Source of the DNA: Candidatus Uhrbacteria bacterium RIFOXYC2_FULL_47_19
GTDB lineage: Bacteria > Patescibacteriota > Patescibacteriia > SG8-24
Assembly (NCBI GenBank): GCA_001791745.1
Contig: MGFG01000020.1
Span: forward strand, 10,712-74,711
Reading direction: 5' to 3'
Length of the DNA stretch: 64,000 nucleotides
Positions 6,213 to 36,530 of the stretch are shown here, piece by piece. Positions within the stretch are counted from its first letter, which is position 1; the number at the start of each line of letters is the position of its first letter. The notes beneath the pieces were generated by a model. It was not told the origin of the DNA. It saw only the letters and a list, made by a program, of their open reading frames with translations, and made no database searches. The translations under genes and the position numbers were made by a program.

Positions 6213-7391
6213 ATGCACAAAATAATAATGTTCATTGTCGTTTTGGCGATGACCCTGGCTCTGCCGGTCGCCTCCCGTGCGGCAGAGATGCGTAGTGGTG
6301 AAGCTGTCTCGATTAGTGTCAGCCAGATCATCGAAGAGAATCTCTATGCCGCTGGCGGGACGCTTTCGATGGACGGCGAAGTTCGTGGCGACGCCCATCT
6401 GCTCGGCGGAAATCTAACCGTAACCGGACCGGTGTCAGAGGACCTCACTGTGGCCGGCGGATCGCTGATTTTGCTCGGCCCGGTCGGTGACGACGTTCGC
6501 GTCGCCGGAGGCAGCATTACGCTCGGCAGCTCGGTTGGTGGAGAACTGGTTGTCGCCGGTGGTCAGATAACCACTACCCCCGGCCTGTCAGTAGTTGGTG
6601 ATACTGTTATCGCCGGTGGCAGTGTGGTCATCAAAGGCGTCTTCGCTGGAGATGTGACAGTCTATGCCGGCGATGTTCAGGTGGATGGCACCATCGGGGG
6701 CGGTCTCTTCACCACGGCGGAATCGGTCACCCTCGCGTCGGGCGCGGTCGTCAAGGGTGACTTCGCTCACGAAGGTCCGAAGGAGGCGAGTGTCGAGACC
6801 GGTGCCGTCGTTGATGGTGAGCAGACCTATACGCAACGGGATTTCGCGGCTGGCGTACCAGACAAGACTGATGAGTTGATACTCTGGGAATCTTTCGGCA
6901 AGATTTTCGGCGCAATGTTTATCTTCTTCGTGCTGGTGAAGTACCTGGCGTGCCTACTGGTTTCCCTGCTGGCGACTTGGCGGTTGCCGCATCTGTCTCA
7001 GGCCGTAGTCGGTCGTACTCTCAAACATTTTGGCATTGACTTATTGACCGGTTTGTTGATCTCAGTGGTCGCACCGATTGTCCTAGTGCTGCTGTACGTG
7101 ACGGTTGTCGGCTGGTTGGTGGCTTGCATCGTCATGGCAGTTTTAGCTTTAGCCGTCCTGGTTGGCGGCGTCTACTCCACCGTATCTTTTGGAGCTCTGG
7201 TTCGCAGAGTCTTCTCTAAAGGTAAAAAGGATTTTTCGGCCGACTGGAAGAGTTCTCTGCTCGGAACAACTCTACTCACTCTAGTCATACTGATCCCAAT
7301 AGTCGGTTGGCTGGTCGGACTGCTGTTCTTCCTAGCTAGCTTCGGCACCGTAGTTAGGCTGGGCTACGAAGCCCTGTTTCGCCGGCGCTAG
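6213..7391 (+). CDS. Signal-peptide protein with a bactofilin/CcmA-like beta-helical repeat domain and a C-terminal multi-pass TM region
   Basis: The N-terminus is hydrophobic. Repeats of the G-x-V/L-x-V-x-G type run through about 180 aa (LTVAGGSLILLGPVGDDVRVAGGSITLG...). The C-terminal 170 aa contain four to five hydrophobic helices. Confidence 0.65.
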   Translation: MHKIIMFIVVLAMTLALPVASRAAEMRSGEAVSISVSQIIEENLYAAGGTLSMDGEVRGDAHLLGGNLTVTGPVSEDLTVAGGSLILLGPVGDDVRVAGGSITLGSSVGGELVVAGGQITTTPGLSVVGDTVIAGGSVVIKGVFAGDVTVYAGDVQVDGTIGGGLFTTAESVTLASGAVVKGDFAHEGPKEASVETGAVVDGEQTYTQRDFAAGVPDKTDELILWESFGKIFGAMFIFFVLVKYLACLLVSLLATWRLPHLSQAVVGRTLKHFGIDLLTGLLISVVAPIVLVLLYVTVVGWLVACIVMAVLALAVLVGGVYSTVSFGALVRRVFSKGKKDFSADWKSSLLGTTLLTLVILIPIVGWLVGLLFFLASFGTVVRLGYEALFRRR

Positions 7392-15419: not shown

Positions 15420-18400
15420 ATGAAACTCAGTCCATTTCTAAAAAGAGTATCTCGCCGACCGGCTGAAACTCTACTAACCTTAGTGCTTGTCATTGCGTCG
15501 AGCGGTCTAGGTTCGTTGATCGCTCCGTTGCCGGCTATGGCCGCCTCGACGATTACGGTCAGTACCAGTGGACTGATCAATGGTGGTTTTCCCGGGGCTC
15601 CGATTCCGGCCAGCTCACCGGCCAGCGCCGTACTGAAGTTGTCAGTGACGGCTTCTTCGGCCCTACAGACTCTCAATTCGGTTACAGTGAACTTTAGTGG
15701 TACTGGTTTGGTTCAGGCTGACCTGGCCGATATCGCTACTGATGATAGTTCCGGTGTTGCTTTATATGACGATGAAGGTGGTACAGCCGGAAACTTCGAT
15801 GGCACTGACTCGGTCATTACTCTGGCTGCCTCTCCGGATTGGACCGGTGAGACGACCAACATCACGCTGACACCGGCGACGCCAGTTCCATTAATCAGCG
15901 GTACACCGGTGATTTTTTATGTAGCCATTAGAACTTCAGCTTTGCTAGTCAACGATCATCGTATAGTCGCTTCCGTTCTAGCCAATGGAGTAGTAACTTC
16001 TGATGGTAGTGGTCCAGCTACTACCTTTAATGCTTTTGAATTACGGGCCGACACTGCTCCAGCACAGATTGTGTCGGTTGGTGGTTTTGTCGGTAGCGCA
16101 TCGGTTAATGTCAGATTTAATAAACCAGTACAAAGGGTTGGTGGTGGCAGTTTGATTGCAGCCAGCTTTACTTATGTAGATGGTGGTGGTGCTGCTCAGA
16201 CTATATCTTCTGTAGCTCATACCCCAGGTCAGGATTTTGCTACATTGACCATGAGTGCTGTTTTGGATGCAGGGGATATCGACGGCACTCCGGCGACTAT
16301 AGCCGCTGCTTCTAGTGCCATAGCTGACATGGGTGGCAATGTTATCGGAACCGATGCTGTGGAAATGGCCAGTGCAATCGAAATTTCTACTTCGACCATT
16401 CCGACAGCGATTATTGGAACGACCTACACCACGATTAGTCCACTGGTGGCCTTCTCGGCGATTGGTGGCACCTCTCCTTACATCTTTGAATCAGCCGGAG
16501 AGCCGGATACAGAGGTACTGACCAACGCTGGACTTTCTTTAGTTGATGATGGAGGTACTTACAAGATAACTGGTACGGTATTGAGCGTTCCGGGTAGTTA
16601 TCCTTTATACATTAGGGCTACAGATTCGGCCGGGACACCTCAGGAGGCGGTCCGGCGGTACAATCTGAACGTTGGTACGTCCGCTGGAGCAGTGCCGGGC
16701 GTTACTAGCGTTGTGCCGGGCGGTGCGCCATTAGGTGCGTCGTCTTTGGCAGTTGCAATTACGGGCTCTAATACTCATTTTTCTGGATCAAGCACGATTC
16801 AGTTTATAAGCGGAGGTTCGGCCGACGCCAACGTTACAGCTACAATTTCGTCGTCAACCACTACAACACTTAACCTTTCGGTTAGTGTAGCCGGGGGCGC
16901 CACTGTTGGGCCACACGATGTACGCGTTACGACCGGAGCCGAGATCGTCGAGATGCCGGGTGGCTTCGGTGTGTTTCCGGCCGGTGATAGTGGGTTAAAT
17001 CTCCAAAGTCCAACCGATGCCGCGACCGGCATATCGATACCTCCTACCTTCAACTTTAGCCCCAGCACTAACCCGTCAGCGGCCACTTACCGCGTTACAC
17101 TAAAGTCGACATCTAATTTTTCTGGGGCCGCTTTATGGGATTACGCCTTTCCTAAGCCGGCTGATGCAGAGAATAGCAATGGTAGCCACTGCAACTTGAC
17201 TGGCTGCAATGTGAACTATGGGGCCGGCTCATTCCGGATTATTACTCAGCCGACTCCGCTTGAGCCGAACACCACCTATTATTGGCAAGTGCGGACCTAC
17301 AGCCAGGCACCATCTGCTGTTAGTGACGCTGTGGCCCCGCTTGAAGGGACTCCAGTTAGAGGTTTCACTACGATTTCGTCGGTCATGGATATCATGCCGC
17401 CGAATATCATGCATCGGCCAGTCTTTCAGACTACGGCCAGCACAGACCTGACTTTGTTGGCTCGTGTCGATGATAACTTTGCCTCGCCAACCTCTACCCC
17501 AGCCCTGACAACTACGGTTAATTACTGTGTGGGTGTCGATTGCGATCCAGGGACCGGTACGCAGGCGAGTGGTACCTCGATCGGTAATGGATTTTTTACC
17601 TTCACTATTCCGGGTGCATCGGTTGGCATTGCCGGCACTATAGTTAGGTATTATCTTGGTGCCTCGGACGGCACTAATACGGCGATCTTTAGGGATATGG
17701 ATGAGACTCCGTTCCGGGTAACATCAATCGCCGCCGGTGTTGGTACTATTACTGGTTCAGTCGTCAATGATAGCGATGAATGTCCGGAAGGTATTCAAGG
17801 TGCCACGGTTTTCGCTGAAGGTACTGGTTTCATGACCACCACAGACGGATCGTGTGAATATACTTTGTCCGGACTTCCAACCGGTATCTATGACATCGTG
17901 GCCTTGAAGACTGGTTATGCTGACCGGATCATTAACGGCATACCAGCCGGCTCCACCAGCATAGTTTTCAGCCTGCCAATGGGTTTCGGTGGTGGTTTCG
18001 GCGGCGATGGCACCAGACCTCATGTCATGTTTACTGGTCCCGGTGAGAACTCGACTGGCATTCCAGGCGGCGATTCCTACTTCAAGGTGTTTGTGGCCTT
18101 CGATAAGCCCATGAGTCAATCTTCGATCACGGATACTGGTAATTTGACCATCAACGAGATTAATCCGGCTACAGGGGAGCTGACCAACATAACGTCAAAA
18201 GGAGACTGGGACTATTACGCCTCTTCCGCCGGTGTGGATCGTGTGCCGCCGGCTTCTAATATGGCGGTGTTTTCGTTGTCGCAGGTTGGTTGCGATGGAT
18301 CTCCTTGTACGCTAGGTGACGGCAAGACTATCGCTGTGATTGTGACCGACTCAGCTACCGACACAGCCGGCAATTCAGTCATGGGAAATCAGCCGGATGG

Positions 18401-21400
18401 TTCGTTCTCCTTCACTTTCTCGACTGGTACCACTTTCTCTGGAAGTTTCGGTGAGGGTGAGGTGTTTGGCTCTGGGGAGTTCATTCCGCCACATGTAATC
18501 GGTATGACTCCACCACCTGGTAGTCTTGATGTGCCAGTTGATCGAAGGGTTGTAGTTAGTTTCTCGGATGCCATGGCGGACGATACTATTGGAACCTATC
18601 TTCTTAAGAGTTACATCAAATTGTATTCAGTGTCTGGGGTGACTGAGACGGACGTTTCATCACTCATTAGTGCTACAACTCTCGACTCAGCCAAGAGGAA
18701 TGCAACTCTGACGTTAACCGGCAGTTTAGCTGCCTCGACCCGTTATCGACTCAAAGTGCTAGGTGGTGCTAAAGCAGCGACTGGACTGACAGTCGGACCA
18801 CCAGAGTCGAGTAGTGCAGTCATGTTCACTGGTGAGTTTAGAACTGGAACTGGCACCGATGTTGGTATACCGACAGTTAATGGGACTTTTCCAGACAATA
18901 CTGCGACCAATGTACCAGTTAATCTAAATGCGGTTAGTATCGGCTTTAGTCGAGATATGGACATGTCAACTATCTCGACAAGCACAGTTTATTTGTCGAT
19001 TGGTTCGACGGCAGTTAATGGTTCGGTTGAATATCGTGCCGCAGAGAGAACGGCCTATTTCGTACCACGTTCGGCACTTACTGCCAGTACTACCTACACA
19101 ATCAATGTGACGACCGGAGCTCAGGCTCTGAACGGAACAGCGATCGCTACAGCAGTAGCGCGCACCTTCACTACTGGTTCGGCCGACGTTTTGGCTCCGT
19201 CGATACAGTTCGGCAACGCTGATGATTTCTCGTTGGCAGTGACCTTCTCTGAGCCCATGAATGCCTCTCGGGCGACTGATACTATTAACTTCACAGCTAG
19301 TGTATTGAAGCCGGCTAATTACGTTCTCAAGTACGCCACCATGGGTGAGGATTCTTCTGCTGGTACGGTCCTGACTGTTCCGGCAGCAGCGACCTTTAGT
19401 TACGATCAGGTAACCAACACAGTCAAAATCGCCGGCTATCATGCCGACGCGATCGATCCGGCGACTCTGCGTGGGAAGGAACTTTATGTCGCAATCACTG
19501 GAGTTAAGGACCTGTCCGGAAATTCGATCACGACTGATGATGGCGCGAACACGGCTAGAATGATGATTTTGAATAGCGCCACTACTCAAGGGGCTCTCGG
19601 TCCGATGGGTATGACCGGCGACTCCTTCTCGGATCAAGGCGGGTTCACACCTGACAATTTTGATTCTGGCACTTTCGGTTTTGCACCACAGGCTGAGGTC
19701 CGTCCATTCAATACCATGCCCGGACAGCTCACGATCTATGGCATACGCTTGCCGATCTCCCGGCAGATTCCGGCTTCTGGGGCTGTTGTTGTGACCTTCC
19801 CTATTGGCTTCGACGTTTCGGCCGCCAGACAGGATGTCAACAGTCCGATGCGCCAGGACTTGAATGGTCCAGGAACGGGAAATGTGACCTTTAAGTGCGC
19901 CACAGCCGGTGCGCCGACCGGAGCATCTTGTTCCGGCACGGCCAACGCCGACGATGCTGGGGTGGCCCAGGGTGGACTAGCTGGCGATGGTGTGGTGGTC
20001 GACACGGCCTCACGCAGCGTCAAGATTTACCTTTCTGCAGCGACCAACGTCGAAGGACATGATTTCTTGACCATCGATATCGCCGGAATTAGGAATACGA
20101 CCGTACCCAAGGACATGAACACTTCGGGTTACACGGCTGATATTAAGACCAAGAACGGCACTACACTTCTAGAGACTGCCACTTCGATGCCATTTTTTAT
20201 TCAGTCTGGTGGTACGGGATCGTTCACTTTGGGCGGTACTATAACTGCGACCGGCAACGTCTCTAGTGGCACTATGCAGGTCTACCTAATGTCGCCGCTC
20301 ACCGGACCGCTCGAGACCACTTCGACTAACTTCTCTGGTGGTGAGACTGCAACTTACAGCTTTACCGGACTTCCAGCCGGTGAATTCATGATTTCGACCG
20401 ATCAGCTGGTGCTGATCGATGCGGCTGAATATGTCGGTAAGGCCAATCCGGAACGGATCGGACTCACAGCCAACAAAACTTACAATTTCACCATGGCCAG
20501 TGCTTCGTCCGGTGGGACTGTGGTTACGGTCAACTTGACCGGTCCAGCTAATGAACCGTTGGACGTGTTTGCTGGTTCGCCGACTGGATTTCGCGTCAAA
20601 CAGGTGACATTGAACGGTGGAGGAACTGGTAGTACTACACTCAATCTACCGAACGGCGAGTGGAACATTGGTGTCGGCCCGCAGACACCTAAGGGTTTCT
20701 CCGGTCCGCCGCCGGCACCGTCTTACCTACCGCCACGTAATAAACAGGCCACTATTGCCAATCCAGTCTGTACAGTTGACGGCACAGTGGGTTGTACCAT
20801 CGCTTTTGCCTTAACAACCTCGGATAAGACCATTCGCGGTTTGGTTAAGGATGGTTCCGGCAAGGTCATGGCCAACGCTGAGGTGTTCGCCTACTCGCCT
20901 AACGGTGGTTTCGGTACCAATGCTACAACCGCTACTAACGGTGCGTTTACACTGAACGTAGTCAGTGGCAGCTACGTTGTTGGCGCATTTATTCCGGGCA
21001 TGCCGACCTCTAAGGAAGTGCCAGTAGTGGTAACGGACCATGCTACGACCTATCTGTTAATAGATGGATCGTCGACAGCGATTACACCAGCCGCTGCGGC
21101 TACTTCCTTTATCCTTAAGGTTGCTAAGCCGGACTACACCATCTCCGGACGTGTGACCGACGGCACGAGTATTGTGCAGGGTGCTTCAGTCTACGCTTAT
21201 CGAACCAATGGTCCGGGTCATGCCGATGTGATGACCGATAGTTCCGGTAACTACACTTTGTACGTCGGCGCCGGAACCTGGAACGTTGGCGCGTTCCTAC
21301 CGCAGTACGGTCGACTATCTGAACAGTCGGTGACCGTCTCGACCGCCAATGTCACTAGCATCAACTTTTCTCCATCCCAAACCGGCACCGGAACTTTCTA

Positions 21401-23960
21401 CACTGTTTCCGGTACGGTGACCTCGGGTGGTACACCAGTATCTGGCGCCTTTGTCCGGCTCATGGGTAACAACACCAACAATGAGGTGATGACTGGTGTC
21501 GACGGCACTTACAGCATGAAGGCCCCGTCCTGCGCCACGGCAGGTTGTTACACACTTAAGGCCTTCGCACCGAGCATTGGCGAGTTCCCGCCGCTCGCAG
21601 CCTTCAGTGTGACTAGTGACACAGCTGGCAAGGACTTTACACTTGCCGCACCTCGAACCTTGACCATAACTTTTTCCGCATCGGTCGCTCGCGGTTTCGT
21701 CGATATGTTCGCCACGAATGGTTCAGGTGCGCGCATCGACGTCTCTAATTCGACGGTTGCCACGTTGACCCTACCGGATGGTAATTATCGGGTTCGTGTG
21801 GACGTACCTGGAACGGCGATCGGTCCGTCTAATATATCTGGCGACGGTTACAACAGTACCACTGGTGTGTTCACAGTTTCGGCGGCCAACACTGCTCTGA
21901 CAGTCACATTGCCGACTCGTCGGACCATCACTGGTAAAGTGACTGACAGCACGGACAACATTGCCAATGCTTGGGTCGAGATTGTCAATCCGACTACCGG
22001 TGTCCACTTTGGTACGCAGACCAATTCGACCGCCGGTCCGGATACTAACTTCAGTTTCAGCGTGGCTGATGGTACTTACTTCATCAATGCGATGAAGCCC
22101 GGGTACTTCCGACAGCCGACTACGATCATTGTCGGAGCTGACACCACGACCCAGACTCTGATTATGACTGCAGCCACAACTACCATTGCCGGACAGGTAC
22201 TGATCGGCGCAACTGGTGCACCCAACTCTTTCGTCCGTGGTGAAAAGATGGGTGGTGGCTTCTCCGGTACTCAAGCCGATGCTAACGGTAACTATGTACT
22301 ACCAGTCGATTCTGGAGAGTGGAAGATTTACGCTGTAGCTGAGGGTTATCAGGAGGCCGGTTACGCCAGCAATCCGATCGACGTTAGTAGTGGTTCGGTA
22401 ACGGGTAAAAATATTACCCTCACCACAGCCGTCAACATGGCCTCACCTAGGTCCAGACCGATCACACCATCCTCGGGTGGAACCATCGACGACCAAGACT
22501 CCGGTCTGAGACTCAATGTGCCGGCCAACGCCTTGGGCACATCTAACTCATCCGGAACCTTAACAGCTAGGGAAACCAACAACGTCCGCTCTACTGATAC
22601 TGCCTACCTGGTCATGGTCTACGACTCGCAGACCGAGACTTACGTTCCGGCAGCCAAGGAACTGTCGGCCACAGATAGCGATGGCAATCCGATTACCAAT
22701 CTTGAGGGTTCGGTCAGTTTGGAGATGGACTACACCATCGCTGAGCTGGCAGCCACTCGGTCAGCGCTCGACTCGTCGATTGATACTCGGACCGAGGCAG
22801 ATATGCTGACCATGGCTTACTGGGATGCGACCAATCAGAGCTGGACACCGCTCCCTAGCACGGTGACTTACCGTGATTCCGATGGGGACATTGTCAACGA
22901 GCCGGAGGAGGACCTATCGAATGTCTCGATCGTTACGGTGTCGGCGACCACAAACCACTTCTCGCTCTATGCCCCGATCGTTTCGACTGATCCGTCAGCA
23001 CCGAGCACTCCGTCTGGTTTGGCAGCGAGCGCAACCAGCACCTCTCAGATAAATCTGAGCTGGACACAGACTTCCGGTGCTACTGGTTACGACATTTATC
23101 GGAGCACCACCGTGGGTGGCACTTATTCTCGTCTGGGTAGCGAGCCGACCGTCAGTTCCGGTTCGACGGTCACCTACAGTGACACTGGTCTCTCGGCCTC
23201 GACGACCTACTATTATAAGATTTCGGCGATCAACGCGAACGGTGAGTCGGCGTCGACATCTGCAGTCAGTGCCACAACCAGTAGCGCAGGTGGAGGCGGC
23301 GCAGGTGGAGGTGGCGGTTCAAGCGGTTCGGTTATTCCGCCAACTACCACACCGGTCACGGATGCGTCCGACCCCGACAGTTTCGTTGATAACTCATCTT
23401 CATTCCCGACCGGAACACATGAGCGTGTTGCTTACAATGAGGCCGAAATGGCGGCTCCGTCTTCAGACACTACTGGAGTCGGTGTCTACAGCTCTGAAGT
23501 AGCAATCTTCAATACACCAACCATCGATGTCGATAAGGGTATTTTGCCTCCACCAGCCGACGTCTGGTTACCTTGTGTCGGCGGCGGTCTGATCAAGACC
23601 CAGGATGGTTCGGCTGTCTACTACTGTGGCAAGAATGGACGACGCTACGTCTTCCCTCATCAGAACATTTACTCGACCTGGTACGGCAATTTCGACAGTG
23701 TCGAGTCAGTTCTAAATGAAGACCTAGCTGCAGTGCCATTGGCTGGCACCGTCACCTATCGTCCGGGCGTCAAGATGGTTAAGATTCAGTCCGATCCCAA
23801 GGTTTACGCTGTGTCTAGAAACGGTCTACTTCGCTGGGTGACCAGTGAAGAGATCGCTACTGAGCTTTATGGTCAGAATTGGAATCGACAGATTGATGAT
23901 GTAAATCCGGCCTTCTTCTTCTCCTACACGATCGGTGATCCGATCGAGGCAGCGGAGTAA
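15420..23960 (+). CDS. Giant secreted/surface protein (2,846 aa) with Ig-like, carboxypeptidase-regulatory-like and FN3 domains
   Basis: The N-terminal signal peptide has a hydrophobic core followed by AMAAS. Multiple SbsA/Big-type Ig-like repeats are present, such as PxVxxxxPxxGSxDVPVDRRVVVSFSDAMADDTI. CarboxypepD_reg-like units are present, such as TISGRVTDGTSIVQGASVYAY...SGNYTL. An FN3 domain is visible at LSWTQTSGATGYDIYRS...YYYKISAINANGES, followed by a Gly-rich linker. The C-terminal repeat module is shared with the 4494..6182 gene product. Confidence 0.85.
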   Translation: MKLSPFLKRVSRRPAETLLTLVLVIASSGLGSLIAPLPAMAASTITVSTSGLINGGFPGAPIPASSPASAVLKLSVTASSALQTLNSVTVNFSGTGLVQADLADIATDDSSGVALYDDEGGTAGNFDGTDSVITLAASPDWTGETTNITLTPATPVPLISGTPVIFYVAIRTSALLVNDHRIVASVLANGVVTSDGSGPATTFNAFELRADTAPAQIVSVGGFVGSASVNVRFNKPVQRVGGGSLIAASFTYVDGGGAAQTISSVAHTPGQDFATLTMSAVLDAGDIDGTPATIAAASSAIADMGGNVIGTDAVEMASAIEISTSTIPTAIIGTTYTTISPLVAFSAIGGTSPYIFESAGEPDTEVLTNAGLSLVDDGGTYKITGTVLSVPGSYPLYIRATDSAGTPQEAVRRYNLNVGTSAGAVPGVTSVVPGGAPLGASSLAVAITGSNTHFSGSSTIQFISGGSADANVTATISSSTTTTLNLSVSVAGGATVGPHDVRVTTGAEIVEMPGGFGVFPAGDSGLNLQSPTDAATGISIPPTFNFSPSTNPSAATYRVTLKSTSNFSGAALWDYAFPKPADAENSNGSHCNLTGCNVNYGAGSFRIITQPTPLEPNTTYYWQVRTYSQAPSAVSDAVAPLEGTPVRGFTTISSVMDIMPPNIMHRPVFQTTASTDLTLLARVDDNFASPTSTPALTTTVNYCVGVDCDPGTGTQASGTSIGNGFFTFTIPGASVGIAGTIVRYYLGASDGTNTAIFRDMDETPFRVTSIAAGVGTITGSVVNDSDECPEGIQGATVFAEGTGFMTTTDGSCEYTLSGLPTGIYDIVALKTGYADRIINGIPAGSTSIVFSLPMGFGGGFGGDGTRPHVMFTGPGENSTGIPGGDSYFKVFVAFDKPMSQSSITDTGNLTINEINPATGELTNITSKGDWDYYASSAGVDRVPPASNMAVFSLSQVGCDGSPCTLGDGKTIAVIVTDSATDTAGNSVMGNQPDGSFSFTFSTGTTFSGSFGEGEVFGSGEFIPPHVIGMTPPPGSLDVPVDRRVVVSFSDAMADDTIGTYLLKSYIKLYSVSGVTETDVSSLISATTLDSAKRNATLTLTGSLAASTRYRLKVLGGAKAATGLTVGPPESSSAVMFTGEFRTGTGTDVGIPTVNGTFPDNTATNVPVNLNAVSIGFSRDMDMSTISTSTVYLSIGSTAVNGSVEYRAAERTAYFVPRSALTASTTYTINVTTGAQALNGTAIATAVARTFTTGSADVLAPSIQFGNADDFSLAVTFSEPMNASRATDTINFTASVLKPANYVLKYATMGEDSSAGTVLTVPAAATFSYDQVTNTVKIAGYHADAIDPATLRGKELYVAITGVKDLSGNSITTDDGANTARMMILNSATTQGALGPMGMTGDSFSDQGGFTPDNFDSGTFGFAPQAEVRPFNTMPGQLTIYGIRLPISRQIPASGAVVVTFPIGFDVSAARQDVNSPMRQDLNGPGTGNVTFKCATAGAPTGASCSGTANADDAGVAQGGLAGDGVVVDTASRSVKIYLSAATNVEGHDFLTIDIAGIRNTTVPKDMNTSGYTADIKTKNGTTLLETATSMPFFIQSGGTGSFTLGGTITATGNVSSGTMQVYLMSPLTGPLETTSTNFSGGETATYSFTGLPAGEFMISTDQLVLIDAAEYVGKANPERIGLTANKTYNFTMASASSGGTVVTVNLTGPANEPLDVFAGSPTGFRVKQVTLNGGGTGSTTLNLPNGEWNIGVGPQTPKGFSGPPPAPSYLPPRNKQATIANPVCTVDGTVGCTIAFALTTSDKTIRGLVKDGSGKVMANAEVFAYSPNGGFGTNATTATNGAFTLNVVSGSYVVGAFIPGMPTSKEVPVVVTDHATTYLLIDGSSTAITPAAAATSFILKVAKPDYTISGRVTDGTSIVQGASVYAYRTNGPGHADVMTDSSGNYTLYVGAGTWNVGAFLPQYGRLSEQSVTVSTANVTSINFSPSQTGTGTFYTVSGTVTSGGTPVSGAFVRLMGNNTNNEVMTGVDGTYSMKAPSCATAGCYTLKAFAPSIGEFPPLAAFSVTSDTAGKDFTLAAPRTLTITFSASVARGFVDMFATNGSGARIDVSNSTVATLTLPDGNYRVRVDVPGTAIGPSNISGDGYNSTTGVFTVSAANTALTVTLPTRRTITGKVTDSTDNIANAWVEIVNPTTGVHFGTQTNSTAGPDTNFSFSVADGTYFINAMKPGYFRQPTTIIVGADTTTQTLIMTAATTTIAGQVLIGATGAPNSFVRGEKMGGGFSGTQADANGNYVLPVDSGEWKIYAVAEGYQEAGYASNPIDVSSGSVTGKNITLTTAVNMASPRSRPITPSSGGTIDDQDSGLRLNVPANALGTSNSSGTLTARETNNVRSTDTAYLVMVYDSQTETYVPAAKELSATDSDGNPITNLEGSVSLEMDYTIAELAATRSALDSSIDTRTEADMLTMAYWDATNQSWTPLPSTVTYRDSDGDIVNEPEEDLSNVSIVTVSATTNHFSLYAPIVSTDPSAPSTPSGLAASATSTSQINLSWTQTSGATGYDIYRSTTVGGTYSRLGSEPTVSSGSTVTYSDTGLSASTTYYYKISAINANGESASTSAVSATTSSAGGGGAGGGGGSSGSVIPPTTTPVTDASDPDSFVDNSSSFPTGTHERVAYNEAEMAAPSSDTTGVGVYSSEVAIFNTPTIDVDKGILPPPADVWLPCVGGGLIKTQDGSAVYYCGKNGRRYVFPHQNIYSTWYGNFDSVESVLNEDLAAVPLAGTVTYRPGVKMVKIQSDPKVYAVSRNGLLRWVTSEEIATELYGQNWNRQIDDVNPAFFFSYTIGDPIEAAE

Positions 23961-24126: not shown

Positions 24127-25260
24127 ATGGATTTTGGAACAGTTGTTATTTGGATCGTTGTTTTGGTCGTTGTAGTTGGTTTCGGTGGTCGTTATATTTG
24201 GCGCATGAAAGTGCGTCGTTTAGTCGGTTTTTCTCAAGAGGAGTTCGTCCGTGATTTGACCGAGGAGGCCAGGAATGGACATCTTGATCCGGTCATTGGG
24301 CGCAATGAAGAGGTGGAAAGAATTATTAATATTTCTGCTCGTCGCACTAAAAATAATCCATTGCTGATTGGTCCACCTGGCGTGGGTAAAACTGCGATCG
24401 TTGAGGGTTTAGCTAGGCGAATTATTGACGGTGACGTTCCGGCGCAGCTTTTAGGAAAGCGGGTAATGGCTCTCAATTTAGGTGAACTTATTTCTGGCAC
24501 TAGTTTACGCGGTGAGTTGGAGGGTAGATTTCAAAAATTTATCGCCGATTTAGAAAGTCGACCGAAGATGACTATTGTGTTTATTGATGAGATTCACATG
24601 ATTTCGCAGGCTCGTGGCACTGAAGGTGGTTTGGATTTAGCGGACATGATCAAACCTGCATTGGCTCGTGGAGATGTCTCGGTGATTGGAGCTACGACTT
24701 GGGATGAGTATCAGCGTACACTTAAATCTGATCCGGCCTTGGATCGAAGATTCCAGCCGGTTTTAATTAGTGAACCTTCAGTCGAAGAAACACTTAGTAT
24801 TCTGCGTGGAGTTAAGGGTGTTTATGAGGAACATCATGGTGTGTTGATTAGTGATGAGGCTCTACAGCGTGCCGTTGAAATGACAACCAAAATGGTTACC
24901 GATAGGTATTTACCAGACAAGGCTTTGGATGTTATTGATGAGGCTGCAGCCAAGGTTTCGATTGATACTTCACCCGGACAATTGGCCTCCCTTGGTGTGG
25001 TTGATGTAGCCGCGAAAAGAAAAGTAGTTGAGCGTATGAGTAAAGAGGCTAAGTTATTAGCGGTAGAGATAGAACATTTAGAAAAACTACGTGGGTCATT
25101 TCCTGATGATTCATCTATTCGACTGGCTAGAGAGGAGCTCGGCCGACATTTGAAACAGATTGAAAATGAACGCAAAACTGTTCGGTCCGATAGTGAACGG
25201 TCGACAGTTACAGCTGCTGATATCGACGCTACGATCGAGTCATGGGGAGTGCAAAGTTGA
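24127..25260 (+). CDS. Membrane-anchored AAA+ ATPase homologous to ClpB/ClpA nucleotide-binding domain 1 only
   Basis: An N-terminal TM helix (VVIWIVVLVVVVGFGG) is present. The sequence is then colinear with ClpB NBD1: GRNEEVERIINISARRTKNNPLLIGPPGVGKTAIVEGLA (Walker A), IVFIDEIH (Walker B) and ALDRRFQPV. The start of the M-domain coiled coil follows, but there is no NBD2. Confidence 0.8.
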   Translation: MDFGTVVIWIVVLVVVVGFGGRYIWRMKVRRLVGFSQEEFVRDLTEEARNGHLDPVIGRNEEVERIINISARRTKNNPLLIGPPGVGKTAIVEGLARRIIDGDVPAQLLGKRVMALNLGELISGTSLRGELEGRFQKFIADLESRPKMTIVFIDEIHMISQARGTEGGLDLADMIKPALARGDVSVIGATTWDEYQRTLKSDPALDRRFQPVLISEPSVEETLSILRGVKGVYEEHHGVLISDEALQRAVEMTTKMVTDRYLPDKALDVIDEAAAKVSIDTSPGQLASLGVVDVAAKRKVVERMSKEAKLLAVEIEHLEKLRGSFPDDSSIRLAREELGRHLKQIENERKTVRSDSERSTVTAADIDATIESWGVQS

Positions 25261-27329
25261 AGGAATTAAATAGGATATCAATTGGGACCGTGGGACTGAC
25301 GGTAGTTACTGCGGTCCTTCTTTTTGTTCCATTACCATTGTTTTGTCGAATAGTAGTTGTGGTGATGTTTTTAGGTTGGTTGGGTTTTCGTTTGGGTCGA
25401 TTTTTAGTGGGTAGTCGTGAGGGTGTTATAACTAGGCTTGTCTTTGGTTTAATGATTGTCTTGTCGTGGTTAGTGGTTAGTCAGTCAATAGTTTATTACC
25501 TCGATCGAATATCAAGATTCAGTCTATTAGTAGGTCTGTTACCCTTGGTCTTTTTTGCTATCCACCGTTTTAATCTCACTGAGACCACTAATCAGACTAT
25601 CATCAAGCCAAAATCATCGATTTGGAGTCGTTGGTTGTCTATAGGTATTCTGGTTGGCGATGTGGTTTTATTTTTTTCTTTCTTATCTGTACGTACCGAC
25701 GAAGCACTGCGAAGTCCATGGGAGGTAGTCTCTTGCTCAGCTTTATTAGCCTTTGTGTCTGTGACTTGGATGTTATTGTTGTTGTGTCGCGAGCCGGACG
25801 CCCCGTTTAAGCGTTCTTTGACTGCGTTACATTTGTTCGTTGCTTATTGTTTATCGGAGACAGTCATGTCACTTGGTTTCGGTTACGATCCCTTTATTCA
25901 TCGTACGGCCGAGGCACACATTGCAGAATTCGGAAATCTTTTACCGAAAAGTCCGTACTATATCGGGCATTACGTATTAATAGTTGCGCTACATTGGTTG
26001 TCCGGTCTTTCAGTAGATGTAATTGATCGATGGTTAGTGCCATTCCTGGCTCCACTAACTTTTCCTTGGGTAGCTAGTTTTGGTTTGAAAAAAGTTTGGG
26101 GCATGAAAGGAAGTGTCGAGCTTTGGATGCCTCTGATACTATTTTTGCCCATGCTGCCGCTGACCTTCACTGTGCCACATGCTCTGACGGTCGTGTTTCT
26201 GCTTTGGTTGGTCTTTTTAGCACCGACAGTCATAAGTTCTAGTCCACTACGTTCATTGGTTATCGGTCTATCTGTGTCGGCTATGATGATTCATCCGCTA
26301 TTGGGTGCAGTGGCAGTCGGATTAATAGCATCATTGTTTTTGTGTCATCGATTCCGGTTCGGTGGGTTGCTATCTGTGATTATCAATGCGATTTTGTTGC
26401 CAATCTTATTTTTCATTCATAACTGGTTAAAAGGCGACTTGCCATTTAATTTTGTCGGACTGTTATCGGATTGGGAACGTTTTATCGCTCTTTTTCGGAA
26501 TCCTTTTTTCTCTGACCTAGAGACGTCTTTTTCGCTTTTGGATTTACTGTATATGTACAGAATGATTATGCCAGCTATTTTTGTGGCTATAGTCGTGATT
26601 GGTGTTATTTTTTTGGTACATCGAAAGATGAAATCATCGGTGATTCAAGCCTATATTTTGACAGCCGTCGGTCTTCTGTTAGCCATCTTTGTTCTGAGTA
26701 CCAGTGTGACGCTATCTGGTATTGTGCCTGGAGAGCAATTGGAATTCTCTTTGAGATTGAAACATGCATTTGGGGTGCTGTTACTTCCATTGTTTTTCTT
26801 TGGTCTAAAATCTCTACTAGATCGTTATCTTAGAGATTCGTTAACTGCTACGGTAGCTGGTTTACTGTTGGTCGTAGCGATAGTAGCTTCGATCAGTTGG
26901 TATCTGACGTATCCACAAGCGAACCATATAGCCAACCGTTCTGGTTGGTGTCTGGGTCGCGCTGATGTCGAAACTATCGAGATAATTGCCAAAGAGGATA
27001 ACGGTCGTCCGTATTTGGTTCTATCCAATCAGATGCTGTCTGTGGCCGCCCTGCGAACCAATGGCTTTGATAATTTTTTCTATGCCTTACCGGTTACTGG
27101 TCGTACTTATGAGTATTACTTGGCTATTTCTCATTCACGACGCAATAGGGGAGTGTTCGAAGAAGCTTTCACTGAGTTTGGGGTAGCACGAGTCTTTTAT
27201 GTGGTGCATGACTATGAATCTGATTTTCATTCTATTGTGGACCAATTGGAGTCTATTTCTGATCAAAGTTGGGTTGTAGCCGATGGCCGAGCCTTTGTTT
27301 TTCTTTTTGAAGATATGGCTTATAATTAG
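25242..27329 (+). CDS. Large polytopic membrane protein (695 aa, at least 12 TM helices)
   Basis: The protein is hydrophobic for about 560 aa and has a soluble C-terminal domain of about 130 aa. It overlaps the upstream AAA+ gene by 19 nt. Confidence 0.65.
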   Translation: MGSAKLKELNRISIGTVGLTVVTAVLLFVPLPLFCRIVVVVMFLGWLGFRLGRFLVGSREGVITRLVFGLMIVLSWLVVSQSIVYYLDRISRFSLLVGLLPLVFFAIHRFNLTETTNQTIIKPKSSIWSRWLSIGILVGDVVLFFSFLSVRTDEALRSPWEVVSCSALLAFVSVTWMLLLLCREPDAPFKRSLTALHLFVAYCLSETVMSLGFGYDPFIHRTAEAHIAEFGNLLPKSPYYIGHYVLIVALHWLSGLSVDVIDRWLVPFLAPLTFPWVASFGLKKVWGMKGSVELWMPLILFLPMLPLTFTVPHALTVVFLLWLVFLAPTVISSSPLRSLVIGLSVSAMMIHPLLGAVAVGLIASLFLCHRFRFGGLLSVIINAILLPILFFIHNWLKGDLPFNFVGLLSDWERFIALFRNPFFSDLETSFSLLDLLYMYRMIMPAIFVAIVVIGVIFLVHRKMKSSVIQAYILTAVGLLLAIFVLSTSVTLSGIVPGEQLEFSLRLKHAFGVLLLPLFFFGLKSLLDRYLRDSLTATVAGLLLVVAIVASISWYLTYPQANHIANRSGWCLGRADVETIEIIAKEDNGRPYLVLSNQMLSVAALRTNGFDNFFYALPVTGRTYEYYLAISHSRRNRGVFEEAFTEFGVARVFYVVHDYESDFHSIVDQLESISDQSWVVADGRAFVFLFEDMAYN

Positions 27330-32485: not shown

Positions 32486-32507
32486 GAGCCCTCTAGGGCT
32501 CTTTTTT
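32486..32507 (+). terminator. Terminator-like hairpin with a T-tract
   Basis: GAGCCCT-cta-AGGGCTC is followed by TTTTTT. It could terminate a plus-strand small RNA from the 32.0-32.5 kb spacer. Confidence 0.5.
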
Positions 32508-32516
32508 ATCGCCCCG

Positions 32517-32542
32517 CAAAACCCCGGGCGTAAGCCCGGGAG
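32517..32542. repeat. REP-like element AAACCCCGGGC-GTAA-GCCCGGGAG (copy 1)
   Basis: A 6-7 bp GC stem with a GNRA (GTAA) loop. It is identical to the copy at 32694. Confidence 0.6.
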
Positions 32543-32693
32543 TTCCGTGCCCGCCTTTGGCCTCCTGCCCTCCGTGAAGTAAGGTGACGGGGTATGGAGT
32601 ATCGACCGTCGGCTGTGATGAGACGACGATCCGCCGGTACATCGAAGCGCAAGGGCAGGAGGACAAAGGACAAACGAAGTTTGTGTGGTAAAG

Positions 32694-32718
32694 AAACCCC
32701 GGGCGTAAGCCCGGGGAG
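32694..32718. repeat. REP-like element AAACCCCGGGC-GTAA-GCCCGGGGAG (copy 2)
   Basis: Same 24-nt palindrome as copy 1. The two copies flank an 11-bp long-range complement: CCTCCTGCCCT at 32561-32571 pairs with AGGGCAGGAGG at 32652-32662. Confidence 0.6.
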
Positions 32719-32808
32719 TGTCATTGCCTTGTTAGAAACCTGAACGGATTATTCGGCACTTGACGTTATTTGGTGGCCTGGTTTAAGCTTCAGTTTGAAG
32801 GAGGAGAC

Positions 32809-33219
32809 ATGGAAAACAGGAATGAGCCAACCTTGGGGCAGCAGTGGTTCGCTGCTATTAAAGAACGAGGAGATCGGACCAAAAAATCAGACGGCGTTGA
32901 TTCTTCTAGAGTAGTTGTTACTCAACACATCAGCGTCTTAAGGGATAATATTAGAGAGGCTATGGATTCTAGAAATCCTCAGACTGTCAGAGTACCTGGG
33001 TTTGAGGATGTCTATAGTTACGACGAAATGTCTCGGATACAGTCTGTCCACTCTGAAAAAATTCCACTAAACCCAGATGATTTTGAAGGAGTTCAACGCG
33101 AGATGATCCTCTGGTGCCAGAAGGAGGGACTGGTTTGTTACTATCTTTACATCAGCTCAGATGCCATGGGCGTCGTTCCTCCTTGTGTGGGGGTCCGCTG
33201 TTTTCCAGCTGAATCTTAG
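32809..33219 (+). CDS. Hypothetical protein
   Basis: The ATG lies after the RBS GAAGGAGGAGAC. The product is MENRNEPTLGQQWF... (about 136 aa). No family recognised. Confidence 0.45.
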   Translation: MENRNEPTLGQQWFAAIKERGDRTKKSDGVDSSRVVVTQHISVLRDNIREAMDSRNPQTVRVPGFEDVYSYDEMSRIQSVHSEKIPLNPDDFEGVQREMILWCQKEGLVCYYLYISSDAMGVVPPCVGVRCFPAES

Positions 33220-33312
33220 TCACAAGTTGTGTAGTTCATCGAAAATGACTTTGGAGCTTTCCCCTCGATCTCGAGGGGTTTTTAATAATTTGTTTATTGT
33301 TTAGTGTTTTAT

Positions 33313-34629
33313 TTATTTCAGTTCCAATTTGGCGACCAGCTCGACGTGCGGTGAGTTGGGGAACAGATCTAGAGCACGTAGATCGGCTAGATGGTATTGA
33401 GTTTCGAGTAGTGACCATTCGCGAACAAAACTATCGTAGTTACAGGAGACATAAATAATAGTAGATGGTCGTTGTTTCAGTAAGTTTTCGATCACCTTAG
33501 GATGTAGGCCTGAACGTGGCGGATCAACGATTACTAAGTCTGGTCGTTCGTTGTTCCAAACCAATGACTCAGCTTTAGCATCGGTGAAGGTTAGGTTGCT
33601 TAGTCCGTTGAGTTCGGCATTGCGGCGGGCAGTGGTGATAGCTTCGGCATCTAGCTCGACACCATGCACCTGTTGTACCAGATCGGCTACACCTACTGCG
33701 AAGAATCCTACGCCACAGTATAAGTCTAAAAGTGTTTTAGCACCGGAGTTTACAACATGTTCGCGGACTGTTTCGAGTAGTTTTTCGGCCATGATCGTGT
33801 CGGTCTGAAAGAAGGAGTTGGGTGGAATCAGGTAGTCGTGTCCACCGACGCGTTCGAGGAGTAATTCCTCACCCGAGAGTAATTCCAGCCGCTCGGCGAG
33901 CGATAGATCGGTTATGGTCGGATTGATGCCGTGATAGATGGAGGTGGCCAGTGGACTGAGTCGGGCGATCAAGTCGTCACGTCCAGGTAGGGGAGCGTCG
34001 GCTGTTACAACAGTAATCATACGTCGATTGGTGTTCTTGCCCTCGCGCACCACCAAGTAGCGAACATATCCAGTGTGTCGAAAGACACACCAAGGTGTGA
34101 CGCTGTTAGTTTGTATCCAGTCTCTGAACTCGCGTAGTATGTCAGCCGCGACAGGCGAGAGTAATGGACAGACATTCAAGTCGACATAAGAATTCCAACG
34201 ACCCGGTTCCTTTAGTCCCACCTGTCCCTCCGGACCGACACAAAAGTCCATACGATTGCGGTAGCCTAGAGTCTGCGGCGACGGTAGAACAGTTTCGATA
34301 CGTTTTGGGAGTCCGCCCCGCTCCAAAGCCTCATTCACTAGTTGGCGTTTCAGCTCAAGTTGGAATTTATAGTTGATGTGCTGCCAGGCGCAACCACCGC
34401 AAATGCCGGCATGCGGACAGGTCGGAGTGATTCGTTTTGGTGAGGCCTTGAGGATTTTTTCTAAATGAAACTTTTTGACACCCTTACATCGACCGACAAA
34501 CGAAGCTTCGACCAGTTCGCCGGGTACAGTAAAAGGTACGCCGGCCGGCCGGTCATTCATCAGTCCGTAGCCACGCCCCTTGCGGTCACAGGAGGTTATT
34601 TCTATTTCATGCAGTTCGCCGTATTTCAT
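33313..34629 (-). CDS. 23S rRNA (uracil-C5)-methyltransferase RlmD/RumA family (TRAM, Fe-S cluster, SAM methyltransferase)
   Basis: The N-terminus is TRAM-like. A Cys cluster CPHAGICGGCAWQH is present. SAM motifs are LLDLYCGVGFF and DPPRSG. Confidence 0.85.
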   Translation of the reverse strand: MKYGELHEIEITSCDRKGRGYGLMNDRPAGVPFTVPGELVEASFVGRCKGVKKFHLEKILKASPKRITPTCPHAGICGGCAWQHINYKFQLELKRQLVNEALERGGLPKRIETVLPSPQTLGYRNRMDFCVGPEGQVGLKEPGRWNSYVDLNVCPLLSPVAADILREFRDWIQTNSVTPWCVFRHTGYVRYLVVREGKNTNRRMITVVTADAPLPGRDDLIARLSPLATSIYHGINPTITDLSLAERLELLSGEELLLERVGGHDYLIPPNSFFQTDTIMAEKLLETVREHVVNSGAKTLLDLYCGVGFFAVGVADLVQQVHGVELDAEAITTARRNAELNGLSNLTFTDAKAESLVWNNERPDLVIVDPPRSGLHPKVIENLLKQRPSTIIYVSCNYDSFVREWSLLETQYHLADLRALDLFPNSPHVELVAKLELK

Positions 34630-34689
34630 GGAGGTAGGGTACTTTTTTTGTTAGATTGGGGTCAAATTTTGATTTTTAGTGTTTATGTT

Positions 34690-35012
34690 TCTGCCTCTGG
34701 GTCCCGGGTCTCGGCCCGGGATGACAGTGTTTTTTGTCATCTCAATTCTTCTTATGAATCTGTCATCCCTACTTTTTATTTTGTCATCTTAAAACCACAA
34801 GCCTTTTTATTTTGTCATCTCGAAACCTCAAGCCTTTTTTAATATGTCATCCCGGAAGGCCGAGCGAAGCGAAGTCTATCCGGGATCCAGAGTCTAATCA
34901 TAATCCGATCTTTCTGCCTCTGGGTCCCGGATACTACTCGCTACGTTCGCTCACAGTTCCGGGACGACGGTGCTTTAATATGTCATCCCGGGCCGAGACC
35001 CGGGATCCACGA
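34690..35012. repeat. Cluster of palindromic CTCTGGGTCCCGG...CCGGGATGACA elements (REP/MITE-like) and degenerate TGTCATC mini-repeats
   Basis: A full palindrome lies at 34693-34727 and inverted copies at 34845-34895 and 34981-35012. A variant lies at 34913-34975. TTTGTCATC(T/C)...AAGCCTTTTT units occur about four times in 34725-34850. Confidence 0.6.
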
Positions 35013-35019
35013 TTCGATC

Positions 35020-35300
35020 TCCACGGCGCATACCTCCCGCGGCAACCTCGGAGGCGTCCGGGCTGGGTCCCGTGCCGTGAGGCGAGGGCCGGACGCCGAG
35101 AGTTAGGACGGACCGCCGCCGGAGCGGGCCGACCCGTGCCGCGACGGTATGCGCCGGAGGCCCGTCCGGCCCGAGGACATAAAGTCCCCGCATAGTGGGA
35201 GGTAGGGCGGCCGCTCTCTTCCCTCCGTTTCTCTAGCGGGACAGAGAAACCGGGCCGGGGGCCCTGGGGAAGTGGAACTTCCCCAATTGAAGAGAATTAA
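35020..35300. other. GC-rich (about 70%) highly self-complementary segment; candidate structured RNA or foreign DNA
   Basis: There are nested inverted repeats: CGGCGCATACC (35024-35036) with GGTATGCGCCG (35146-35157), GGCGTCCGGGC with GGGCCGGACGCC, and GGGGAAGT-gga-ACTTCCCC. I could not fit the RNase P, SRP or tmRNA consensus by eye. Confidence 0.3.
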
Positions 35301-35390
35301 TTAGGGTTCCCTAGAGGGATGAAATCTCCTTAGGAAAGGGGAATATTCTGGGTCCCAGGTCAAGCCCGGGACGACAAAGGATAAAGATTT

Positions 35391-36530
35391 ATGCTATTTT
35401 CTGTACATCAACTTATGACTTTTATCTTGACTCTAATTGGCGCGGCCGTGTTGTCGGTAGTCGTTACCAGCCTGGTACGGATCATGGCTCGGCGTTTCGG
35501 TGTACTCGACAGACCGGCCGGTCGAAAACAGCATCGCACCCCGACACCGCTTTTAGGTGGTTTTGCCATTTACTTGTCTTTAGTTGGAGCGGTTGTGGTT
35601 ATGTCGTCACTTGGTCTTTTTAATGGTTCACATATCAAAGCTAAATATTTGGTGGGTATTATTGCTGCTGCATCATTTTTAGCTTTCGGTGGAGCTTTGG
35701 ATGATCGGTTTAATCTTAAACCATTACGTCAGTTGATTTGGCCTCTATTAGCTGTGGTCGCGATCATTGCGAGTGGTGTTGGTGTGGCCTATGTCACTAA
35801 TCCATTTGGTGGATTGATCGAACTCAATCGAATTACTACTACGGTTTTGTGGTTCGATGGTATTCCCTATCGTTTGACCTTACTTGCTGATTTGTTTGCC
35901 ATGGTTTGGCTTTTAACTTTAACGTACACTACAAAATTCCTAGATGGACTCGATGGTCTAGTATCTGGTGTGACCGTAATTGGTTGCTTGGTAGTCGCTG
36001 CAGTTAGTTTGACACGCGATGTAGCTCAGGCCGATACCGCTCTGTTGGCCCTGGCGATCGGCGGGGTGTTTGCTGGATTTTTAGTTTTTAACTTTCATCC
36101 AGCACGTATGTTTCTAGGTGAAGGTGGTTCAACTTTGGCCGGCTTTTTACTTGGTACATTGGCTATCATCTCAGGCGGAAAGATTGCTACGACTTTGTTA
36201 GTGCTCGGCCTGCCACTTTTTGATGCGGTAGTCGTAGTGGTGCGACGGGTACTGCGGGGCAAGTCACCATTTGGTGGTGACCGTTCTCATTTACATTTCC
36301 TATTGGTTGATGGTGGTGTACCACATGGTCAAGCCGTATTATTATATTGGGTTTTGGCAGCAGCGTTTGGAATTTCGACACTGTTGTTGCGTGGACCACA
36401 GAAGATCGCTGCTCTCGGATTGATTGGTAGTTTGGCCCTGGCTGGTGTGGCGTTATTAATGTCGATTCGACAACGCAATAAGATTATAAAAAGTAGTCTG
36501 ACGACAAATGACAACAGAACATCCGAATGA
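35391..36530 (+). CDS. Glycosyltransferase family 4 polyprenyl-phosphate sugar-1-phosphate transferase (WecA/MraY-like)
   Basis: VLDRPAGRKQHRTPTPLLGG matches D-x-P-x-x-RK-x-H-x-x-P-x-P-x-x-GG. About ten TM helices are present. Confidence 0.8.
   Translation: MLFSVHQLMTFILTLIGAAVLSVVVTSLVRIMARRFGVLDRPAGRKQHRTPTPLLGGFAIYLSLVGAVVVMSSLGLFNGSHIKAKYLVGIIAAASFLAFGGALDDRFNLKPLRQLIWPLLAVVAIIASGVGVAYVTNPFGGLIELNRITTTVLWFDGIPYRLTLLADLFAMVWLLTLTYTTKFLDGLDGLVSGVTVIGCLVVAAVSLTRDVAQADTALLALAIGGVFAGFLVFNFHPARMFLGEGGSTLAGFLLGTLAIISGGKIATTLLVLGLPLFDAVVVVVRRVLRGKSPFGGDRSHLHFLLVDGGVPHGQAVLLYWVLAAAFGISTLLLRGPQKIAALGLIGSLALAGVALLMSIRQRNKIIKSSLTTNDNRTSE

Follow-up and report, generated by a model that had tools for sequence, protein, structure and literature searches.

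The window analysed here, i.e. the whole 64,000-nt stretch of DNA, contains between two divergent genes a GC-rich element that is real, non-random and conserved in two uncultivated species. On balance we favour reading it as a structured element that is specific to its lineage, is maintained by selection and stands outside the described families; most likely it is an RNA of ~270 nt. The more general statement, that it acts as a functional single-stranded structure and that this structure is RNA, we consider likely. The element is a worthwhile but modest candidate.

The site of the element is a 761-nt gap (34630-35390) between the following genes:

33313-34629, minus strand: RlmD/RumA-type m5U RNA methyltransferase gene, 438 aa (Pfam PF05958, E=1.3e-21)
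35391-36530, plus strand: MraY/WecA-family (GT4) glycosyltransferase gene (Pfam PF00953)

The genome is that of a Candidatus Uhrbacteria (Patescibacteria): in public sources an identical methyltransferase protein carries the name 'Candidatus Uhrbacteria bacterium RIFOXYC2_FULL_47', and the homologues of the glycosyltransferase are those of Patescibacteria. The wider neighbourhood has a housekeeping character (Era, LOG, BipA, RecR, YbaB, DnaB, SHMT, FolD, Mur ligase). Within the gap, the segment 35000-35290 reaches a GC content of 73-80% compared to 48% (0.477) for the whole 64-kb window. This confirms the GC-rich segment that had been noticed from the letters at 35020-35300, where about 70% was given. 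In 100-nt windows over 35000-35200 the GC content is 0.73-0.78, while values of 0.31-0.55 are found directly upstream.

The same sequence-only reading had listed three nested inverted repeats, all of which were recovered at their positions. CGGCGCATACC (35024-35034) pairs with GGTATGCGCCG (35146-35156) in 11/11 positions, with the arms being 111 nt apart, GGCGTCCGG (35053-35061) pairs with CCGGACGCC (35089-35097), and TGGGGAAGT (35265-35273) with ACTTCCCCA (35277-35285). Folding also bore out the multi-helix fold predicted from these repeats. For the 291-nt stretch 35010-35300 a minimum free energy (MFE) of -159.4 kcal/mol was obtained on the plus strand and of -159.9 kcal/mol on the minus strand, and none of 200 dinucleotide shuffles was as stable on either strand (z -4.46 on plus, -5.11 on minus). 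The MFE layout of this stretch consists of two domains followed by a terminal hairpin. When domain 1 (35024-35156) was folded alone, MFE and centroid structures coincided at -81.9 kcal/mol (z -3.7). The entire 761-nt gap folds with -343.8 kcal/mol (z -6.8). The parts of the element are:

35011-35020, plus strand: GATTCGATCT motif immediately 5' of the element
35024-35156, plus strand (provisional): domain 1, a 133-nt three-way junction, from the MFE fold and with a homologue in species 2
35024-35034/35146-35156, plus strand (provisional): P1, closing helix of 11 bp
35038-35044/35137-35143, plus strand (provisional): P2
35047-35049/35100-35102, plus strand (provisional): P3
35053-35061/35089-35097, plus strand (provisional): P4
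35062-35088, plus strand (provisional): P5 tip with a GUGA loop at its end
35106-35134, plus strand (provisional): P6 arm
35157-35263, plus strand: domain 2, a species-specific GC-rich branched region, from folds and alignment
35264-35286, plus strand: terminal hairpin of 9-10 bp, CUGGGGAAGU-GGA-ACUUCCCCAA, from the inverted repeat and four variants
35286-35297, plus strand: conserved tail 3' of the terminal hairpin, AAUUGAAGAGAA, consensus ARUUSAAGARAA

Domain 2 contains the hairpins GGGAGG..CCCUCC and GUUUCUCU..AGAGAAAC. The tail AAUUGAAGAGAA is common to the window and to the contigs L026 and L030 (see below) but missing in the variant of contig L015. Motifs of the GATTCGATCT type (ATYCGATCT) are repeated ahead of other hairpin modules, namely at 34903 of the window and at 3448 and 3620 of contig L034 from species 2. 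In species 2 the counterpart of GATTCGATCT ahead of the element is GATCCGATCT.

Among the GTDB representatives we found one relative, Parcubacteria/Uhrbacteria bacterium CG1_02_58_44 (species 2, with the organism of the window being species 1), whose methyltransferase is 86% identical. Contigs L024-L031 of this species carry a homologous element at the matching site, upstream of the same methyltransferase. The copy is complete in L026 and present as a variant in L030; one scaffold (L025) is N-gapped there and several contigs end inside. With our model R1 the homologue of domain 1 in L026/L030 scores 162.5 bits. Within the core (35038-35143, i.e. columns 30-135 of the 152-column domain 1 alignment) 99 of 106 positions are identical between the two species, and 89 of 90 when the P5 tip is left aside. 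In the adjacent methyltransferase gene nucleotide identity amounts to 77% overall and to 51% at third positions, and it falls to 47% at the four-fold degenerate sites (n=211). Compared to the latter value, the 99/106 identity of the core indicates strong constraint, well above the neutral level. The core has also kept its own composition: GC3 of the methyltransferase gene changes from 0.50 in species 1 to 0.81 in species 2, while the GC content of the element is ~75-77% in both.

The strands of the closing helix P1 are identical at 6 of 14 and 6 of 13 positions, which corresponds to neutral-level divergence, yet species 2 can still form 10 of the 11 P1 pairs. Both partners are exchanged in four pairs (CG>GC, GC>AU, AU>GC, UA>GC), one pair is broken, and two extra pairs are present in species 2. 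Sliding the 3' partners of P1 by 1-3 columns reduced the pairing from 98.9% to 30-40%. The terminal hairpin is retained in four variants, with 95% of the cells being paired. Its loop-closing pair has undergone one UA<->AU double change, and another pair occurs as a series of AU, GU and GC. For domain 2 there is no conservation, its place in species 2 being taken by a linker and a 30-nt hairpin that ends in a GCGA loop. With two species and four variants the shuffle controls were weak (34/500 for domain 1 and 65/500 for the hairpin), and the helices P2-P6 are invariant between the two species, such that the case rests mainly on the constraint and on the replacement of P1. Within this very small sample the changes in P1 and in the terminal hairpin indicate that base pairs are kept by compensatory change.

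In relatives with a methyltransferase identity of 61-72% the element is not present at the equivalent site. Species 3 (L032, methyltransferase 72% identical) has a 225-aa gene and a 155-nt spacer there, and in the relative L041 (61% identical) GT2 and methyltransferase genes are only 105 nt apart. Since these more distant relatives have just 105-155 nt at the site, the element and its surroundings are a lineage-specific insertion, which was acquired on the branch towards species 1 and 2 and has been retained since their split. The ancestral gene order is PFOR-GT2 divergent from methyltransferase-Era-LOG-BipA. A coding fragment or pseudogene of the 225-aa gene of species 3 was rejected, as tblastn revealed no similarity. 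Model R1 found no further copy of domain 1 in ~179 kb (the 64-kb window and other loci). A 20-mer from the species-specific domain 2 had no match in the GTDB representative genomes, and its sole match in the JGI metagenomes was the present locus. The regions upstream of MraY homologues with 66-86% identity (L007-L013) showed no similarity.

The assemblies fork at the 3' end of the element. JGI contigs L014 and L015/L022 follow the window up to 35234, the former from 32502 and the latter from 32551, with L015 having one mismatch at 32627. They then carry 8 differences in 35235-35282 and continue after 35285 into unrelated sequence (an 81-aa ORF, GT2 and PFOR genes). At a second fork (32502-32550) L014 carries tRNA-Leu and an LTD-domain gene in place of the Era side. 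The forks bound a 2.7-kb block (32502-35285) with a 149-aa ORF, the methyltransferase gene and the element, which may be duplicated, mobile, strain-variable or mis-joined. Synteny with relatives agrees with the left side of the window (Era), but with the right side of the alternative version (GT2/PFOR). The junction of the window to MraY was seen again in another assembly, L001. The left neighbour of the element is constant, being the methyltransferase gene in all variants and both species. The right-hand neighbour is, by variant, GT4, the 81-aa ORF plus GT2, or GT2; the GT4 gene, which a DUF192 gene follows, takes this place in the arrangement of this window only. Since the element and the hairpin repeats around it are sites where metagenome assemblies break or join alternative flanks, the gene order there, including the methyltransferase-to-MraY junction, can be trusted only with long reads.

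The hairpin repeats form a mosaic within the gap. It holds five short units in alternating orientation and in two mirror forms, CTGGGYCCYGG-loop-CCGGGRYGACA and TGTCATCCCGG-loop-CCGGGATCCAG, next to a set of tandem repeats:

34697-34726: forward hairpin unit, CTGGGTCCCGG-loop-CCGGGATGACA, which pairs with 34981-35009 (29 nt, 97%)
34772-34865: three tandem 31-nt AT-rich repeats (CTTTTTATTTTGTCATCTTAAAACCACAAGC) with a TGTCATC motif
34845-34890: inverse hairpin unit, TGTCATCCCGG...CCGGGATCCAG, 92.6% identical to the unit of species 2
34920-34969: forward hairpin unit with a long loop
34981-35009: inverse hairpin unit, directly 5' of the element
35348-35376: forward hairpin unit, just ahead of the ribosome-binding site of the glycosyltransferase gene

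Part of the mosaic can be drawn as a 312-nt nested palindrome (34698-35009), with outer arms of 29 nt that are 97% complementary and an inner pairing of 34846-34892 with 34918-34968. By eye, GATC is locally dense in the repeat units and linkers of 34884-35020 (GGGATCCAG, CCGATCT, GATTCGATCT).

This mosaic is the basis of the main rival explanation, which we consider unlikely. The element would be one module in a mosaic of palindromic repeats that is specific to the lineage and comparable to REP/BIME, BOX or MITE; it would act at the DNA level and have no dedicated RNA function. Together with the short hairpin units it would represent selfish or structural repeats, which would fold as single-stranded DNA or as cruciforms, be spread or homogenised by a cognate enzyme or by gene conversion, and promote rearrangement. 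The element sits amid the five alternating units. In species 2 the units also occur at a second locus, where they fill the 682-nt FtsI|MraY gap (L034 3226-3908); a 47-nt unit therein shares 100% identity with the copy beside the methyltransferase gene, and the stretch at ~3775-3797, upstream of MraY, is similar to the unit 35348-35376 of the window. The FtsI|MraY gap contains in addition a different GC-rich folded module (L034 3605-3750, z -3.7), which follows an ATYCGATCT motif and lies upstream of MraY. (Several contigs of species 2 begin ~190-220 nt upstream of MraY.) Between the species the multi-copy units are 93-96% identical (92.6% for 34845-34890), i.e. they are about as conserved as the core. 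This keeps the repeat explanation alive, since the conservation might reflect the repeat family. The whole mosaic is moreover missing from the relatives with a short intergenic region, and the assemblies fork, with different genes being joined, exactly at the 3' end of the element (35235-35285) and at 32502-32550.

Against the explanation by repeats stands that domain 1 was found with model R1 at one locus only in the ~179 kb searched, and that the 20-mer scan of the JGI metagenomes gave this locus alone. The units are likewise not dispersed, since every match to their motifs in the 64 kb lies in this one gap. The orientation of the unit 5' of the element differs between the species, with inverse in species 1 and forward in species 2, such that no conserved terminal inverted repeats surround the element. 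No transposase, Y1 (RAYT-type), integrase, reverse transcriptase or Cas domain was seen among the 23 larger ORFs (of 44 with >=110 aa) that were scanned against Pfam. Finally, an invariant junction closed by a freely covarying clamp helix is more typical of functional RNAs.

That the segment is functionless foreign or junk DNA, or an assembly chimera derived from a GC-rich organism, is very improbable and largely refuted. The idea is suggested by a GC content of 75-80% in a genome with 48% GC, by the absence from relatives, by the N-gap in L025 and by the many contigs that start or end inside. Contigs coming from the right begin at 35094, 35160, 35180 and 35205, and contigs from the left stop at 34996, 35150, 35214 and 35234. 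These ends, however, fit forks of the de Bruijn graph at variant sites. For example, a contig with k=141 begins at 35094, i.e. 141 nt before the first variant base 35235, and another one ends at 35234, as a fork at 35235 would give. At least six independent assemblies, drawn from four sources (ENA, JGI, NCBI and Logan), carry the element with 100% identity, and in L001, L014 and L015/L022 both flanks are attached to it. The sequence is therefore real and not an assembly artefact. A conservation of 93% where neutral sites retain 47%, together with the compensatory changes in the helices, argues further against this idea. Nor was there meaningful similarity to mobile DNA: no phage record matches and three core strings are missing from viral contigs, for which reason a phage origin was rejected, and a plasmid origin was dismissed because its matches were at chance level (a 62-nt stretch, 80% identical, within an Azospirillum efflux gene, E=1e-3). 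Of the foreign fragment considered in the sequence-only reading, the insertion thus stands, given the absence from distant relatives, but not the junk, given a conservation far beyond that of neutral sites.

It had also been proposed that the composition of the segment matches that of an island at 480-1700. The compositions do agree, the island having >70% GC, but a link was rejected since the two share no sequence similarity and the island holds an ORF (377 aa, 523-1656, minus strand, without Pfam match). The island lies between two copies of a 65-nt direct repeat (298-362 and 2090-2154, 79% identical, with the exact 18-mer TCCTAGTCCCGCAGCCAC at the end). The hairpin stem of this repeat differs between the copies yet pairs in both (GCGGCCC..GGGGCCGC vs CCCGCC..GGGCGGG). 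The 65-nt repeats may represent either att-like termini of an element that has integrated or an RNA motif in repeated copies. Just upstream of the island an ORF at 7-282 looks GIY-YIG-like by eye. Elsewhere in the window a 2846-aa ORF extends over 15420-23960, and the large ORFs at 2633-4240, 4494-6182, 6213-7391 and 25242-27329 had no Pfam match. A replication origin was rejected, as the cumulative GC skew climbs monotonically across the window.

Searches with the 4227 models of Rfam 15 returned no family at gathering score anywhere in the 64-kb window, and no riboswitch or other cis-regulatory RNA family matched at or near its gathering score. At E<=10, using inputs of 2 kb, 441 nt and 701 nt from two species, the matches were chance-level miRNAs, snoRNAs and viral stem-loops that remained well below gathering scores and of which none was common to both species. 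ARAGORN detected neither tRNA nor tmRNA in the 64-kb window. These results agree with the earlier by-eye impression that RNase P, SRP and tmRNA do not match, and the novelty suggested at that time stands after the Rfam search. Of its alternative "unknown structured RNA or foreign fragment" the first half has gained: the element is structured, conserved in a second species and without Rfam match. That a divergent housekeeping RNA (RNase P, SRP, tmRNA or 6S) was overlooked by the standard models in Patescibacteria is barely conceivable, since, although none of the four was detected anywhere in the window and the strings GAGGACAUAAAGUCCCCGCAUAG and GGGACAGAGAAACCGGGC in domain 2 of species 1 (~35172-35195 and 35238-35256) recall the P4 strands of RNase P RNA, no such model matched at E<=10 in either species, the look-alike strings belong to a domain that species 2 lacks, the putative P4 strands are only ~65 nt apart, and the absence from the locus in the 61-72% relatives fits an essential RNA poorly.

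Several other identities were rejected. A 1-nt indel lies within the conserved core between the two species and the ORFs overlapping the element have no Pfam match, which argues that the element is not coding. A guide RNA of IscB/TnpB (omega RNA, HEARO) was discarded because the 438-aa neighbour is an m5U methyltransferase (PF05958) and HEARO gave no match. The two 3'-end variants do not represent template and variable repeat of a DGR: their eight differences (A>G, G>A, C>A, C>T, A>G, G>C, T>C, C>T) are not adenine-specific, and the 23 larger ORFs scanned against Pfam include no reverse transcriptase. Short strings such as CCCGCGGCAA, GAGAGUUAGG and AAGUUCC resemble rRNA. Mimicry of 23S or 5S rRNA was nevertheless treated as chance, since the strings have no model support and AAGUUCC is not conserved. 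The best reading is that the element matches no described RNA family and is a candidate for a new, narrowly distributed structured RNA of two species.

If the element is transcribed, the indicators of the strand are mixed and weakly favour plus. The MFE of the whole element is better on the plus strand by 2.7-5.8 kcal/mol in three variants and by 3.4 kcal/mol in the L015 variant. The consensus fold of the terminal hairpin reaches -14.3 on plus vs -8.5 kcal/mol on minus, and GNRA loops (GUGA, GCGA) occur on plus only. For the longer window stretch the MFE is about tied between the strands, and the consensus fold of domain 1 is slightly better on minus (-82.5 vs -77.6).

A scan of 34500-35500 for sigma-70-like promoters found none. 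At the start of the methyltransferase gene 23 nt (34630-34652) are nearly identical in three species; on the gene strand this stretch has a conserved GTACCCTACCTCC and reads ...AAAAAAAGTACCCTACCTCC-ATG, without a Shine-Dalgarno sequence. It may be the promoter of a leaderless or near-leaderless methyltransferase mRNA. A promoter so close to the start codon would argue against a minus-strand leader of 400 nt. The TGTCATC motif occurs six times on one strand in 34730-34990, and the TGTCATC repeats could be protein-binding sites in a divergent promoter region.

Given a functional RNA, about half of our expectation goes to a leader on the plus strand, and the rest is shared by two alternatives, a small RNA that stands alone and a minus-strand RNA linked to the methyltransferase gene. 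For the leader the following mechanism can be envisaged. The inner helices of domain 1 (P2, P3, P4 and P6) would form together with the junction a specific binding surface for a protein or a small ligand. P1 would be a generic clamp helix that holds this surface in shape, such that its sequence is free while its pairing is required. Transcription would proceed rightward on the plus strand and read through into the downstream polyprenyl-phosphate glycosyltransferase gene. Genes of the relatives end in canonical U-tract terminators, whereas the hairpin of the element is without U-tract, because of which a plus-strand transcript would run into the downstream gene. In the ancestral arrangement the target would be GT2-PFOR, in the window the MraY/WecA-type GT4, and the element might, as we suggest with low confidence, act as a cis-acting leader that controls or stabilises the glycosyltransferase mRNA. 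Against the leader speaks that the right-hand gene differs among the variants, which is odd for a dedicated leader. Since the methyltransferase gene is constant while the right-hand gene varies, a stand-alone or a methyltransferase-linked RNA stays in play. We identified neither an expression platform (alternative pairing with a terminator or a ribosome-binding site) nor a clue to a ligand for the element. A bolder version is a long shot: domain 1 would serve as the sensor in a novel class of cis-regulatory RNA of Patescibacteria, be it a riboswitch or a leader that binds a protein, and the genes under its control would be those of polyprenyl-phosphate-dependent glycosyltransferases (GT2-PFOR operon and MraY/WecA-type GT4). 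If true, the domain 1 sensor would let a metabolite or protein signal act on the synthesis of envelope glycans.

For the Patescibacteria, which are uncultivated bacteria with reduced genomes, to our knowledge almost nothing is known about gene regulation, and descriptions of non-coding RNAs are very few. An RNA-like element that is near-invariant while the neighbouring synonymous sites are saturated would provide a concrete handle on the regulation of cell-envelope genes in this group.

Among the known systems, bacterial RNase P RNA has a similar GC-rich multi-helix look, and two strings of species 1 recall its P4. The element differs from it in that no covariance model matches, the strings are not conserved, and size and topology are wrong. 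Mosaic intergenic repeats such as REP/BIME of enterobacteria, BOX of Streptococcus pneumoniae and Correia of Neisseria are short imperfect palindromes that alternate and combine into mosaics, can fold in mRNA and are linked to rearrangements. Like these, the present locus has five units flanking the element, which repeat at a second locus in species 2. Unlike these, the apparent copy number is low here, all units of the 64 kb lying in a single cluster; the 23 ORFs scanned nearby include neither a RAYT-like nor a transposase gene; and the 133-nt junction domain is far larger, more intricate and confined to one locus. From the orphan structured RNA motifs and riboswitch candidates the element differs by having no match among the 4227 Rfam models, two species only, a varying downstream gene and no identified expression platform or ligand clue. 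Like them, however, it is intergenic, precedes metabolic or envelope genes in the same orientation, exceeds its genome in GC content, and combines a multi-stem junction and an invariant core with a covarying closing helix.
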